From Escherichia phage phiE142, in the sequence record NC_055709.1: a stretch of 64,000 nucleotides of DNA, one strand, 5' to 3'. Under the pieces are notes generated by a model. That model saw only the letters and a list, made by a program, of their open reading frames with translations. It was not told where the DNA came from and searched no databases. This document shows, piece after piece, positions 29,813-35,853 of the stretch; the first letter of the stretch is position 1, and each line of letters begins with the position of its first letter. Made by a program: the position numbers and the translations under genes.

Positions 29813-30218
29813 TATTTTTCCTTTCATCGATTAAATATGCAATGCCAAATACAATACATGTAATAAAACCTGTGATACAGATAGAAACCAACAACACTGT
29901 ACCAAAGAACCAAATCAAGTTATCTTTAGTAGTTTGTTTGATATCCATCTCACGAATTTCTATAGCTATCGTATCACCTTTATTCAGAAGCGTATAAAAC
30001 GACGGTGATACACGCCTGTCAAAAACTCGTCCTTGCTCATCTTTATAGACTGCAATAAATTCTAATTTAGAATATTTTCCTGTAGATTGGCCTGAGATTA
30101 ATTCCACTACCTCCACAGGAATTACTTTAGTTTCCATGTAAGTATTCTGGCTGTTCCAAATGAATGGAATAATAGCAAAAACTAAAGCTGCGATAAAACA
30201 ACGAAGGCTATATCTCAT
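29805..30218 (-). CDS. membrane protein, 137 aa
   Basis: N- and C-terminal TM helices; ATG verified. Confidence 0.45.
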   Translation of the reverse strand: MRYSLRCFIAALVFAIIPFIWNSQNTYMETKVIPVEVVELISGQSTGKYSKLEFIAVYKDEQGRVFDRRVSPSFYTLLNKGDTIAIEIREMDIKQTTKDNLIWFFGTVLLVSICITGFITCIVFGIAYLIDERKNNV

Positions 30219-30523
30219 TATAATGTTCTCTCAAATTTGTGGAAGCATTTACGGCATTTCAATTTCAAGTTATCAGTGGTCCAGTTAACCAGTTGGACTT
30301 GGATAGTTCCACATTCCGGACATGGATGTTTTGCTGCCGATTTGGCAGCATTTTCACGTCGTTCAACCATTTTCATGATTTCGTTCCATGCCGGAGGAAC
30401 GAACTCTTCTTCATCGTGGATATTATCTCGCTGAACAAATTCAATCTTTGAACTATCATCAATAAACTTAACCAAGCTGTTATTAGTGCTCATATCAATA
30501 TCCTCTAAAAGACGTAGGTTCAT
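30218..30523 (-). CDS. zinc-ribbon protein, 101 aa
   Basis: CPEC...CRKC pairs; ATG verified. Confidence 0.45.
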   Translation of the reverse strand: MNLRLLEDIDMSTNNSLVKFIDDSSKIEFVQRDNIHDEEEFVPPAWNEIMKMVERRENAAKSAAKHPCPECGTIQVQLVNWTTDNLKLKCRKCFHKFERTL

Positions 30524-31473
30524 TATAACACCTCAATGGCATTTCGTAAACCATCCGCTTTCGCATTCAGAGCTTTTAACGATTTAGTTTGTTCTGCAAT
30601 CTGGGCTTCGACTTCTTTCAGACGAGATTTGAGATATTCGCGTTCTTCTCTTAAGTTATCAACTTTTTCTGCTTTAGGTTCTTTAATAGGCTTAGGCTTA
30701 TACTCGTTAGGGTTCTTCAACTTAATTTGAATGCGAGAACTGTATAACATTGAACCATTATCTTCGGTTTCATCATACATTTCTACCACGTCCATGATTC
30801 TTAACATCATGCGAAGTTTATAAGACAGCGAACGAATGGTTTTGTTGCGCTTATTAATTTCTTCGGCTTTCATAGTACCGAGATTACGTGAGTAATAATA
30901 AGGAACCTGGATATCAATTGATAACGACGCGGTGCCATTACCGGTTGGTTTGAATACTGCAGTAACCCAATCTTTAACATGAACTTTATTTGTACGATCA
31001 TCACCGCCTGTGAATAATTTACGTGAATGTTTAAAAAGCATATTCACTTGGTTATTGAATTCACAAGCAAATTTATCAGCAAATTTAGTTTCAGGAATGG
31101 TAGATAACCAATCAGCCAAATGAGTCTTTTTAACATCATTAACAATAGTGAATTCAACCAAATCTGTTTTAGATGTCACAGATTTAATAAAGCTCGGTTT
31201 CATAAAGTTTTTAATGTTATCGCGAGCTACAGTAGAAGATAATAAACGAGAACGTTTAAACCATTGAAGCAGCGTCCCTAATGAATGAGAATACGCATTT
31301 TGAGTATCTTTACAGATATGATTTTCTTGGCCTGTGTATGTACCAAAATCGCGAAGAATACCACTTACTACATCTCGGTGTGGAACATCAAATCCTAGTG
31401 CGCCAACAGCGCGCTGGGCGTGAACGTTAGCGATAAGTCCTGCAAAGTAATCAATGTAATGTGAACGTGTCAT
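30523..31473 (-). CDS. hypothetical 316-aa protein with C-terminal coiled coil
   Basis: ATG verified; own PeSL promoter. Confidence 0.5.
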   Translation of the reverse strand: MTRSHYIDYFAGLIANVHAQRAVGALGFDVPHRDVVSGILRDFGTYTGQENHICKDTQNAYSHSLGTLLQWFKRSRLLSSTVARDNIKNFMKPSFIKSVTSKTDLVEFTIVNDVKKTHLADWLSTIPETKFADKFACEFNNQVNMLFKHSRKLFTGGDDRTNKVHVKDWVTAVFKPTGNGTASLSIDIQVPYYYSRNLGTMKAEEINKRNKTIRSLSYKLRMMLRIMDVVEMYDETEDNGSMLYSSRIQIKLKNPNEYKPKPIKEPKAEKVDNLREEREYLKSRLKEVEAQIAEQTKSLKALNAKADGLRNAIEVL

Positions 31474-31501
31474 AATATTTTCCTCTCGTTAAGATAGATT
31501 C

Positions 31502-31531
31502 ATTATACTCCAACCATCCTTGGTTGTAAAC
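31502..31531 (-). promoter_or_regulatory. PeSL cassette: GTTTAC, stem-loop CAACCA-TCCT-TGGTTG, TATAAT
   Basis: 27-bp core identical to copy at 32522. Confidence 0.6.
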
Positions 31532-31535
31532 TATT

Positions 31536-32495
31536 TTATGATTTTAATGCATTCATTGCGTTAAAAAGTTTAGAATACTGCAACTGGAGATTCGTTACAA
31601 CACTTTGAGCATCACGAAGCTTAGCTTGTGCTTTGTCAAGTTCAACAGACAGTTGGTCTACAGTAGCCTTGATTTGATTGTAATGGTAATCTTCGGCCGG
31701 AATAAGGTCATTAGAAACATTTAGTTTTACTGCAGACAGTTTGCACACATTTGGCAAACCTTTAAACATTGATTTACCCGAAGTAGAATAAGCACTTAGG
31801 ACTTCGGCCTGTTCAATTGGGGTCCCAGTAAGCGATGCTTCAAACAATGCATTTTCTTTTTTAAGATTTTGATAGTATTCAGAGTCTTTGTGCCACCATG
31901 GCGCAGGAACCTTTTTACCAATAGATACACGAGCCTGGATAGCGATATGGCCCTTATTCTTGATAGGGTCGATAATATTAAGCTCACGAGAATAAATTGC
32001 TTTAATCTGGTGAATATTATCACCTAACACTTCCAACGCTTGGTGGAATACACGAGCAACGTTATCATTCTTAGGTTTATACGTAAGAGTGAACTCGTTC
32101 TCACTGATAACCATGATTTCTAACTTATCATAAGTATATTTCAAATGTTTCATGTTAATTGCTTGAGGACGAATACGAGAAGCAATGGCCATCAGATTGT
32201 TAAGGTTATTCCGGAACTGCTTAGCGAAATATTGTCCTTCACCGCCAATACAAAAATTACGAAGTTTCTGTTTGGCTAATAAACGGCTGAACTCGCCATT
32301 TTTAATGAACTCTTTAACTGGTGTGTTAGTAACGCATTCAAATTGAGTAAACTTACGAGAAGTAATCCCATAATATGAACAGACTTCCTCAATCTCTTCA
32401 GGAGTCTTTACAGGCATACGGATAGGATTAGGTCCTGGAGTATATGCGTTCGAGGTAAATTCTTTGATAAGTTCTTTACGTGTAATAAAAGCCAT
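31536..32495 (-). CDS. hypothetical 319-aa protein with C-terminal coiled coil
   Basis: ATG verified; own PeSL promoter. Confidence 0.5.
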   Translation of the reverse strand: MAFITRKELIKEFTSNAYTPGPNPIRMPVKTPEEIEEVCSYYGITSRKFTQFECVTNTPVKEFIKNGEFSRLLAKQKLRNFCIGGEGQYFAKQFRNNLNNLMAIASRIRPQAINMKHLKYTYDKLEIMVISENEFTLTYKPKNDNVARVFHQALEVLGDNIHQIKAIYSRELNIIDPIKNKGHIAIQARVSIGKKVPAPWWHKDSEYYQNLKKENALFEASLTGTPIEQAEVLSAYSTSGKSMFKGLPNVCKLSAVKLNVSNDLIPAEDYHYNQIKATVDQLSVELDKAQAKLRDAQSVVTNLQLQYSKLFNAMNALKS

Positions 32496-32521
32496 TTTAT
32501 ATTCCTCATGTTGAAAAATTT

Positions 32522-32551
32522 ATTATACTCCAACCATCCTTGGTTGTACAT
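32522..32551 (-). promoter_or_regulatory. PeSL cassette, near-identical copy of 31502-31531
   Basis: ATTATACTCCAACCATCCTTGGTTGTA repeated. Confidence 0.55.
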
Positions 32552-33546
32552 CATTCCTTAAGAAGTTTTACTACTTGAATAAGATTAGCTCGTTCTGTTT
32601 TATTTTTACCATTTAAGCCTGCTAATCGTGAGATTTCATCGTCAGTCTGTTGAATAGTTACATTAAGTTCGTTAATCAAAGCTTCAAAGTATTTGATTTG
32701 CTCAGCATGTTTTGATTCAAATTTCTGAACAGGAATAACGTCTTGGTTCAGTTCATCAATAAGGTCTTTAAGAGCATCTTCTTGGTTGATATCATATTCA
32801 ACTTCTTTTATTTCTTCAACGAGCTCGTCTTTATATCTAACGTCTTTTAGTCCTGGTGCTGGTCCTGAAATCTCTTCTTTAAGAGTACAAACATATCCAA
32901 TACGGTATCCAGTTCCGTCTCGCTTGATATCAACTTCGTCGATAAATCCACAATGTTTAAGCCCGGAGCCGATTATGTCAAAATATCCTTGACGTCGTCC
33001 TTCAAACGTTACACGAACTACTAAGACAGTTTTACCTGCAACCTTTTGAAGCTCACATTTATAAAAGTCAGTTGAACCTGAATAACGTGGATGAGTTTTA
33101 AAGTTCATCTGACGATCTAGGCCCATTTGTAAGCGTGCTGTTACGGCCATAAAACGTGTTTGGTTCTCGTTAAGATGAGCAACAATCCATTTCAAAGGCA
33201 TTTTACACTGTTCACGGCCGAACAAATCAGTACGTCCTAGATTACGCAGGATGTTGTTAGAGTTAATCATCGACAGAACGTTAAGTTTATTCAGCGCGCT
33301 GAAGATTCCATCAGCCATTGATTTTCCATAACCTTTACACGCTTTAATAAGTGCTCGCGGCAGATTAGTATAGATTTCAGACGGCATATGAAAATCAAAT
33401 TTACTAGTCAGTAATTGATGAACTTGGATAGCAATTTGTTCATAATTAAGTGCCCTGCGATCATTATGGTCTTTAAACCATACTTTAATCTGTGAAGCAC
33501 ATAAACCGTTAATTTCATGTTTTACCGCATCAGATGTAATGCTCAT
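32551..33546 (-). CDS. hypothetical 331-aa protein with C-terminal coiled coil
   Basis: ATG verified. Confidence 0.5.
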   Translation of the reverse strand: MSITSDAVKHEINGLCASQIKVWFKDHNDRRALNYEQIAIQVHQLLTSKFDFHMPSEIYTNLPRALIKACKGYGKSMADGIFSALNKLNVLSMINSNNILRNLGRTDLFGREQCKMPLKWIVAHLNENQTRFMAVTARLQMGLDRQMNFKTHPRYSGSTDFYKCELQKVAGKTVLVVRVTFEGRRQGYFDIIGSGLKHCGFIDEVDIKRDGTGYRIGYVCTLKEEISGPAPGLKDVRYKDELVEEIKEVEYDINQEDALKDLIDELNQDVIPVQKFESKHAEQIKYFEALINELNVTIQQTDDEISRLAGLNGKNKTERANLIQVVKLLKE

Positions 33547-33608
33547 AACTATTTCCTCAGATTGAATTGGAACTCAAAACCATTATAACCCGTCCTTGGG
33601 TAAAGCGT

Positions 33609-34136
33609 TTATGCGTGAACCGTCTTTAAACGTTCTTCAAATTTCCGAAGAGTACTAATACGTTCTGCTTTCTGTTTTGTATAGTTTGCAATACGTTCTG
33701 AAGTGAGAGCGTATCGTTCGTTTACTGATTCTTTCATGAAGTCAGGGATTTCACGAGAAGCTTTAATTTCATCAAACTTATCGAGTACTGCCTGGTCTTC
33801 AGCAATTAAATTTTCGTACATCTCGATATCTTTCTTGATGAAGTCGATATCTTCCTGGGTTACTTTGGATAAACGAGATGCTTTATCCTTTTTGTACTGT
33901 TCGTTAGTTTCACGAGACCAGAATAATGTACGTTTTTTGTTAGTGTTTTTATAGACTTCCACAATTCCAACTGAATCGATGATAACAATCCAATTCCAGC
34001 GAGATTTGAAAATCTGACCTCCGTCCACGGTAATCTCGTTACCATAAGCAACGTCATTAAAGAACTTGCTTTGTGCTTCAGATTTAAATTTACCGTCGTT
34101 ATAATTTACCAGGTTGAAAATATCTTTAGCGTTCAT
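33609..34136 (-). CDS. hypothetical protein, 175 aa
   Basis: ATG verified; PeSL upstream. Confidence 0.45.
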   Translation of the reverse strand: MNAKDIFNLVNYNDGKFKSEAQSKFFNDVAYGNEITVDGGQIFKSRWNWIVIIDSVGIVEVYKNTNKKRTLFWSRETNEQYKKDKASRLSKVTQEDIDFIKKDIEMYENLIAEDQAVLDKFDEIKASREIPDFMKESVNERYALTSERIANYTKQKAERISTLRKFEERLKTVHA

Positions 34137-34149
34137 GTTTTACCTCCAG

Positions 34150-34192
34150 TAGTTGATAGGTCTATAATAACATAACCATAGACCTTGTAAAC
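34150..34192 (-). promoter_or_regulatory. PeSL cassette (GTTTAC, AGGTCTAT/ATAGACCT inverted repeat around TATTAT -10)
   Basis: upstream of 33609-34136. Confidence 0.55.
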
Positions 34193-35489: not shown

Positions 35490-35526
35490 ATAGGTCTATA
35501 ATAACATGTTTAAAGCAAAAGTAAAC
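35490..35526 (-). promoter_or_regulatory. early promoter (GTTTAC, 17-nt spacer, TATTAT)
   Basis: upstream of AAA+ ATPase gene. Confidence 0.5.
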
Positions 35527-35769: not shown

Positions 35770-35806
35770 ATAGGTCTATAATAACATATCCTAAAAGCAT
35801 GTACAC
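35770..35806 (-). promoter_or_regulatory. early promoter variant (GTGTAC -35, TATTAT -10)
   Basis: same GATAGGTCTATAATAACAT core as other cassettes. Confidence 0.4.
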
Positions 35807-35853
35807 TACTTTTTAAAAATATTTTGACCCCCTAAAGGGCCCGAAGGCCCTTA

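Follow-up and report, generated by a model that had tools for sequence, protein, structure and literature searches.

The stretch of DNA analysed here, 64,000 nucleotides of Escherichia phage phiE142 (sequence record NC_055709.1) and referred to below as the window, is 100% identical to the Mosigvirus Escherichia phage phiC120. It contains three consecutive minus-strand open reading frames (ORFs) of 316, 319, and 331 amino acids (aa), whose products we call w316, w319, and w331, and these lie where a preliminary description of this DNA had placed them: w331 at 32551-33546, w319 at 31536-32495, and w316 at 30523-31473. The synteny with the T4 nrdC-tk interval is clear, and the locus sits between nrdC/endonuclease VII and rI/tk, as it does in T4. 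The trio corresponds, in Mosigvirus, to the nrdC.6-nrdC.5-nrdC.3 segment of T4, which is part of nrdC-tk, a hyperplastic region made up of early accessory genes. The spacers before w319 and w316 are, as read from their sequence, PeSL elements, early promoters with a stem-loop between the -35 and -10 boxes that are repeated in hyperplastic regions and mediate insertions and deletions (indels) (Arbiol et al. 2010, PMC2839356; Comeau et al. 2014, PMC4122927). The genes, their families, the cassette type, and one function (that of T4 nrdC.5 against the defence protein Dsr1) were already known, and because the genes and the cassette type have been catalogued this is not a new system; the new points are modest ones, namely the remote unification of three protein families and a population-level PeSL indel of a probable anti-defence gene.

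No family had been recognised for any of the three in the preliminary description, but all of them fall in named T4 families. The first, w316, belongs to the NrdC.3/NrdC.4 family (Pfam PF26897, Phage_T4_Y04OP; phrog_1435), being 59% identical to T4 NrdC.3 over the full length and matching phrog_1435 at E=3e-105, a profile that T4 NrdC.3 and T4 NrdC.4 match too; its membership of PF26897 is by orthology, through homologues at 57-95% identity that have precomputed PF26897 assignments. For w319 the family is NrdC.5 (Pfam DUF7235 = PF23882; phrog_2351): the DUF7235 hidden Markov model (HMM), which has a gathering score of 30 bits and for which membership requires a full-length match, scores 420.5 bits (E=5.9e-126) and aligns residues 15-318 with profile positions 1-307. 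T4 NrdC.5 matches the same models as w319 (DUF7235 at 420.6 bits, E=5e-126, with a further match at E=1e-168), and the two proteins are ~30% identical. Lastly, w331 belongs to the NrdC.6 family (Pfam PF26899, Phage_T4_Y05B; phrog_2257), matching phrog_2257 at E=8e-128. BLASTP aligns it with T4 NrdC.6 at 30% identity (E=3e-19), and a MAFFT alignment with T4 NrdC.6 and its full-length T-even relative gives 34-37%; here too membership of the Pfam family is by orthology, through a full-length alignment with T-even NrdC.6 that includes the tail, and syntenic genes in two further phages carry PF26899. This family is very narrow, with six matches among 1.8 billion representative proteins.

A pairing of w319 with NrdC.4 and of w331 with NrdC.5 was also considered and is wrong; BLASTP was empty for it, and PHROG and Pfam gave the correct pairs. 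A single-sequence protein homologue search, tblastn, and a pattern-based locus search returned close relatives only, an NCBIfam search of the trio gave no match, and the PADLOC models gave sub-threshold matches in the coil region of w316 and none for w319 or w331. Several oddities of annotation were seen along the way. In many GenBank phage records homologues of NrdC.3, NrdC.5, NrdC.6, and NrdC.10 are labelled 'thioredoxin', apparently a mistake that has its origin in the locus names 'nrdC.x', and one record names a gene at the locus 'Mur ligase domain-containing protein'. Two DUF7235 proteins (P0124 and P0006) lie on contigs of 489 kb and 337 kb labelled as E. coli or metagenome, an unexpected setting for a gene of strictly lytic T4-like phages, and chimeric assembly is a possible cause.

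The comparison with the T4 proteins shows both likeness and difference. T4 NrdC.5 (P39256) and w319 have a common position between the NrdC.6 and NrdC.3/4 genes, and both end in a coil, with strong identity over the last 40 residues; w319 differs in having a 29-aa N-terminal extension and in lacking two internal segments of the T4 protein. The w316 gene is in the position of nrdC.3, directly upstream of the nrdC.2 homologue, but whereas T4 has two paralogues of this family, NrdC.3 and NrdC.4 (P39254 and P39255), the window phage has one. The family of T4 NrdC.6 (P39257) has a conserved N-terminal half and a C-terminal tail common to w331 and full-length T-even NrdC.6, and w331 alone contains an extra beta-rich insert and acidic linker (aa 165-270). 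The T4 reference nrdC.6 (NC_000866, 275 aa) stops early (…FSDYLD), its coil lost by frameshift. The conserved coil tail LSGLSSKAKSEREKLIKIVDLLKS is still encoded downstream in another frame (NC_000866 7997-8070, minus strand), and an intact form of 295-331 aa is found in two T4 relatives and in w331; the truncation reflects a frameshift mutation or else a mistake in the reference sequence. In two further phages a 70-aa gene, absent from the window phage and from T4, lies between the NrdC.6 and NrdC.5 genes.

The 27-mer ATTATACTCCAACCATCCTTGGTTGTA is present exactly twice in the window, at 31502-31528 and 32522-32548, so that the repeated cassette reported earlier in the two spacers is indeed an exact repeat; there are no further copies in the window at up to three mismatches, with none expected from 100 shuffles. 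The copy preceding w316 (PeSL 1, 31502-31530, minus strand) reads TTTACA-N17-TATAAT, and the copy preceding w319 (PeSL 2, 32522-32550, minus strand) reads TGTACA-N17-TATAAT, each with the hairpin CAACCA-AGGA-TGGTTG in its spacer, which RNA folding gives as a 6-bp stem CAACCA/TGGTTG with an AGGA loop. PeSL 1 is the best promoter-like site in an 11-kb scan with 11 of 12 matches, PeSL 2 has 10 of 12, and a promoter is annotated at the place equivalent to PeSL 1 in phage NBG1. PeSL 2 begins 2 nt past the w331 stop codon, and both elements are followed by a Shine-Dalgarno sequence and then an ATG. For T4 and PST the published PeSL promoter consensus is TTTACW-N17-TAYWAT (PMC2839356, PMC4122927), and the likeness to the T4-type elements is threefold: PeSL 1 and PeSL 2 have a sigma-70-like early promoter with a stem-loop in the spacer, the trio elements lie between a stop codon and the next Shine-Dalgarno and ATG and are repeated in the hyperplastic region nrdC-tk, and recombination between copies deletes or inserts the flanked gene. 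In PeSL 1 and PeSL 2 there is no U-tract after the hairpin, and the terminator scan made no call.

A third, related element upstream of w331 (33582-33604, minus strand) had been missed previously. It contains the hairpin ACCC-AAGGAC-GGGT followed by TATAAT, with the core CCAAGGACGG at 33590-33599, has no canonical -35 box at 17 bp, and was not called by the promoter scan; in T4 the nrdC.7/6 unit, and in another phage the Y05B gene, is preceded by an element of the same type. The core CCAAGGAYGG is found in three copies in the window, one upstream of each trio gene, where 0.09 would be expected. This core is common to eight cassettes, taken from the window, from T4, and from two other phages, with an invariant AAGGA loop and stems that covary: 89.6% of stem positions are paired, compensatory changes are seen in four of the six pairs, and the covariation score of 0.60 compares with 0.15 in shuffles (none of 500 reaches it) and with at most 0.14 when the partners are slid. 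Together with the PeSL anatomy, this covariation bears out the earlier view of the spacers as promoter and stem-loop cassettes, and compared with published PeSLs the hairpin of the trio locus is a distinct subtype, defined by the core CCAAGGAYGG and the AAGGA loop and common to Mosigvirus, T4, and others. Cleavage by RegB at the GGAG next to the loop is a candidate reason for the loop's invariance. The idea that the hairpin is specific to the trio was dropped because the PeSL core occurs three to four times per Mosigvirus genome. In Shigella phage JK36 (MK962754), for example, a copy at 2501-2535 lies between the dexA exonuclease gene and a 164-aa gene; this dexA-type copy belongs to the motB region, ~42 kb from the trio and outside the window.

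The two identical 27-bp cores bound a unit of 1020 bp (31502-32521, minus strand) that consists of one PeSL core plus w319. A synthetic deletion junction, in which window positions 31329-31528 are joined to 32549-32748, was searched against a phage collection; of the 152 Mosigvirus records, 21 contain it in a single unbroken match of 400 nt (96.5-98% identity), and w319 is present in the other 131. NBG1, which has w319, and G2469 are phages of one species; in G2469 the 316-aa gene comes directly after the 331-aa gene, and the 57-bp spacer between them is chimeric: the core has the left flank of the upstream PeSL on one side and the right flank of the downstream one on the other. Because the deletion of w319 in these 21 genomes is exact and its crossover falls within the 27-bp core, w319 is a 1020-bp PeSL-bounded presence/absence cassette. 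The modular shuffling through the spacers that had been proposed from the repeat itself is thus seen as an exact, cassette-by-cassette deletion of the middle gene, and is a clean natural example of recombination between PeSLs by which a phage species turns a probable counter-defence gene on and off.

Each of the three proteins ends in a predicted coiled coil, as had been noted, although the evidence is weaker for w331. A heptad-scoring script places the best 28-residue window at the C-terminus of all three (w316 279-306, w319 273-300, w331 281-308), with each score above all 200 shuffles, and the neighbouring genes lack such tails; the family-averaged 3.5-residue periodicity of hydropathy gives permutation p<0.0005 for w316, p<0.0005 for w319, and p=0.0015 for w331. 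In w316 the helix covers aa 275-315 (30529-30651, minus strand) after a disordered linker at aa 255-274, as seen in the AlphaFold2 (AF2) model and the heptad tests, and in w319 it covers aa 267-318 (31542-31697, minus strand), with an AF2 predicted local distance difference test score (pLDDT) of 68-93 in addition to the heptad tests. The w331 heptad region (aa 278-331, 32554-32715, minus strand) is defined by heptad score and periodicity and is conserved across its family, but, with LAGLNGKN breaking it up, it is the weakest coil of the trio and may form a helix-break-helix. Searches of PDB sequences with the family profiles of w316 and w319 gave nothing significant, the weak matches being mostly coiled-coil or C-terminal: a Myc leucine zipper in the w316 tail, and for w319, all at the C-terminus, a keratin coiled coil and a segment of the helicase SRCAP. 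Pairwise BLASTP shows no identity between the tails across families, and what they have in common is heptad character. Two small proteins of 129 and 88 aa (P0165 and P0166) carry the NrdC.6 C-terminal coil alone, on unrelated N-termini, and are probably remnants of rearranged or truncated nrdC.6 genes. The NrdC.8-like protein w175 (33609-34136) also ends in a helical segment, with a borderline heptad score at the 95% level of the shuffles.

The N-terminal bodies had been described as unrelated-looking, and at the level of BLASTP this is so, with no match in any pairwise comparison of w316, w319, and w331; nor is there a cross-family match when the family HMMs are compared with the sequences of all ORFs in the window. 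The relation is seen by profile-profile comparison only. The NrdC.3/4 profile (57 sequences) aligns with the NrdC.5 profile (45 sequences) in hhalign at E=3.8e-5 over 136 collinear columns outside the coil, with a score of 43.0, and none of 120 shuffles reaches it, the shuffle maximum being 30.7; the null consisted of column-shuffled and block-shuffled target profiles. A single protein, the 324-aa JD18_070 encoded at the same genomic position in Klebsiella phage JD18, matches both the NrdC.3/4 profile (probability 91.6%, E=8e-7) and the NrdC.5 profile (probability 55%, E=1e-4), and phrog_26858 is matched by both NrdC.4 and NrdC.5. When NrdC.3/4, NrdC.5, and JD18_070 are merged into one profile, it aligns with NrdC.6 over 206 collinear columns (probability 93.3%, E=2.8e-7), partly covering the periodic tail, with a score of 56.0 against a null maximum of 32.2 (0/120 shuffles reach 56.0). 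The three pairwise alignments are consistent in register, such that column 77 of NrdC.6 corresponds to column 46 of NrdC.5 and column 66 of NrdC.3/4, and they centre on a non-coil motif, [FL]xK.[GR].LS...A...L.N[FY], and on the long helix after it, which ends in A[SR][RK]L..G.D.

Structural modelling supports this relation in part. The AF2 model of w316 (pLDDT 80.9, predicted template modelling score 0.71) has a helical N-terminal region at 3-88, a core at 93-252 in which beta-hairpins alternate with two long helices, the disordered linker, and the C-terminal helix. The w319 model, built from a 45-sequence alignment, has a pLDDT of 43 and is unreliable outside the C-terminal helix, with an order of elements that is compatible with w316. 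The structure prediction and Foldseek search that had been suggested found no significant solved relative: nothing in the PDB matches the w316 model at E<=0.001, and the top weak matches are LAGLIDADG endonucleases. Relatives were found in BFVD, with eight matches at E<=1e-3, mostly of 310-375 aa and all uncharacterised, from T4-like phages of Acinetobacter, Erwinia, Serratia, and Aeromonas, together with a Klebsiella phage protein at E=1.2e-3; among the BFVD matches listed there is a probable tandem pair in phage Ac42 (E=1.3e-5 and 1.2e-2).

Given the profile-profile relation, the heads that look unrelated are probably diverged paralogues, and the three families remote ones. The case for homology of the bodies is made by the profile comparisons, because the w319 model is unreliable and w331 is without a model. 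The proposal of a variable head joined to a common tail is not supported: the bodies look like remote homologues whose elements come in one order, and in the tails no sequence identity between families was seen. It could be argued instead that the trio is a set of unrelated orphan genes with similar lengths and helical tails, a run of independent cassettes each made of a PeSL and an ORFan, and it is true that neither BLASTP nor HMM-versus-sequence comparison finds any cross-family similarity, that coiled coils are common and can inflate profile scores, and that PeSL regions are known to collect unrelated ORFans. We nevertheless consider this rather unlikely, since the profile-profile scores lie far above the column- and block-shuffled nulls, the alignments agree in register and are centred outside the coil, JD18_070 bridges two of the families, and the order of secondary structure elements in the AF2 models of w316 and w319 agrees. 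A further 299-aa protein from a contig of 167 kb (P0090) that matches both the NrdC.3/4 and the NrdC.5 profiles was rejected as an evolutionary intermediate, being a deletion-fusion chimera: the middle of a T4-type NrdC.5 is fused at …KFNKVN|MLFKH… to an NrdC.3-type C-terminal half, and the junction fits a deletion at a short microhomology that removes the genes between.

A second rival reading is that the trio forms one hetero-oligomeric machine, with different heads joined by a common C-terminal coiled coil, as the preliminary description had suggested. All three proteins do have C-terminal heptad helices, the gene order Y05B-DUF7235-Y04OP is kept in Mosigvirus, Tequatrovirus, and two further phages, and all are early genes in T4. 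However, of 152 close relatives 21 (14%) are without the middle gene and have the other two intact, the number of members in other genera is one, two, or four, supplying T4 nrdC.5 by itself in trans is enough against Dsr1 (leaving out of account the extent of the mutant's deletion), the T4 reference NrdC.6 has lost its coil by frameshift, and the tails have no cross-family similarity in pairwise BLASTP. Because the middle gene is dispensable in nature, copy number varies from one to four among genera, T4 nrdC.5 suffices in trans, and the T4 reference NrdC.6 is without a coil, hetero-assembly is disfavoured; we regard it as unlikely, and so too an obligate three-protein complex held by the coils, although the proteins may associate facultatively.

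Insight into function comes from T4. Plating of a T4 deletion mutant fails on E. coli that has Dsr1, a defence protein with a SIR2 domain, and is restored when T4 nrdC.5 alone is supplied in trans (Srikant et al. 2022, PMC9391042). In time-resolved omics data for T4 the RNAs of nrdC.3, nrdC.4, nrdC.5, and nrdC.6 are all classed as early; the proteins are early as well, except that of nrdC.5, which is middle-class, so that the T4 orthologues of the trio are expressed. The literature searched on nrdC.3 to nrdC.6, DUF7235, and Y04OP contains nothing beyond that study and the omics tables, and the Pfam names are unmentioned in it. As w319 is the Mosigvirus representative of the same Pfam family, the earlier suggestion that the trio might inhibit host defence fits the published phenotype, and by analogy w319 may have an anti-Dsr1-type activity. 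A functional analogue is reportedly DSAD1, an inhibitor of DSR2 from an SPbeta-like phage that is reported (Garb et al. 2022) to neutralise a SIR2-domain NADase; it is likened to w319 by function alone, and differs in belonging to another phage group and in having DSR2 rather than Dsr1 as its target.

The interpretation we favour is that the locus is an array of diverged, paralogous PeSL early accessory genes that probably encode oligomeric counter-defence proteins. Several points weigh against it. No function is reported, in the literature searched, for any member of the NrdC.3/4 or NrdC.6 families, and w319 is only ~30% identical to T4 NrdC.5 and tblastn does not connect the two, so that conservation of its target is uncertain. 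On the side of homology, there is the unreliable w319 model and the missing one for w331, and part of the profile alignments spans periodic coil columns. The element upstream of w331 departs from the promoter pattern, with no canonical -35 and a TTTACC box only 11 nt from the TATAAT, and the w319 indel can be read as either loss or gain. That the trio proteins play no part in counter-defence, and instead act on nucleic acids or mimic a part of the virion, for example as degenerate LAGLIDADG-like or tail-terminator-like alpha/beta decoys or DNA binders, is in our judgement very unlikely. The likeness of w316 to tail terminators and to LAGLIDADG proteins was itself rejected as sub-threshold and mutually inconsistent.

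If the trio is such a counter-defence array, its members would be highly diverged paralogues of one phage-restricted superfamily, built alike from a helical N-terminal region, an alpha/beta core, a flexible linker, and a heptad helix at the C-terminus. The w319 and w316 genes would each be driven by a full sigma-70 early promoter whose spacer forms a hairpin, and since the hairpin comes immediately after the stop codon of the preceding gene it would in addition mark transcripts that read through, or attenuate them. Because its own cassette lacks a canonical -35, w331 may be read from the NrdC.8 promoter instead. Homologous recombination between the 27-bp direct repeats would excise or insert w319 as a unit, with both states circulating in one species. 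Each protein would contact a host target through its divergent body and form oligomers through its C-terminal coil. Judging from T4 NrdC.5, the target of w319 would most likely belong to the Dsr1-type SIR2 NADases, and w316 and w331 would have targets other than that of w319.

A bolder version, which we put forward only tentatively, is that the array is a diversifying paralogue family of coil-oligomerised immune antagonists, each tuned to a different defence sensor and swapped by way of PeSLs with the AAGGA loop. If this is correct, the NrdC.5 branch would act against Dsr1-type SIR2 NADases and the NrdC.3/4 and NrdC.6 branches against other systems, and Mosigviruses with and without w319 would have different host ranges on E. 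coli strains with Dsr1. Natural pairs that are close to isogenic are available for comparing Dsr1 sensitivity, with NBG1 or phiC120 on one side and G2469 or p000v on the other; AV110 is a further phage that lacks w319. The w319 indel bears on the prediction of host range for therapeutic Mosigviruses. The probable paralogy also links PF26897, DUF7235, and PF26899, filed apart as families of unknown function, into one superfamily with one anti-Dsr1 member, and so provides a concrete hypothesis for dozens of uncharacterised T-even early genes.

Other regulatory signals lie close to the trio. A second promoter cassette, GTTTAC/TGTACA…TGTTATTATAGACCTATC, occurs on the minus strand at 34164-34191, 35498-35525, and 35778-35805, is common to three neighbouring early genes (those for the NrdC.8-like w175, an NrdC.10-like protein, w330, and a 72-aa product), and includes ~10 identical bases downstream of the -10 box. 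Within the region encoding the w316 coil, at 30522-30550 on the minus strand, there is a promoter-like TTTACG-17-TATAAT with an upstream TG. This site is closely followed by the NrdC.2-like zinc-ribbon gene (30218-30523), the ATG of which overlaps the stop codon of w316. Finally, a GC-rich hairpin, AAGGGCCCGAAGGCCCTT, at 35826-35852 lies between the gene for an NrdC.11-like nucleotidyltransferase and the 72-aa gene, and has a terminator-like score on both strands.

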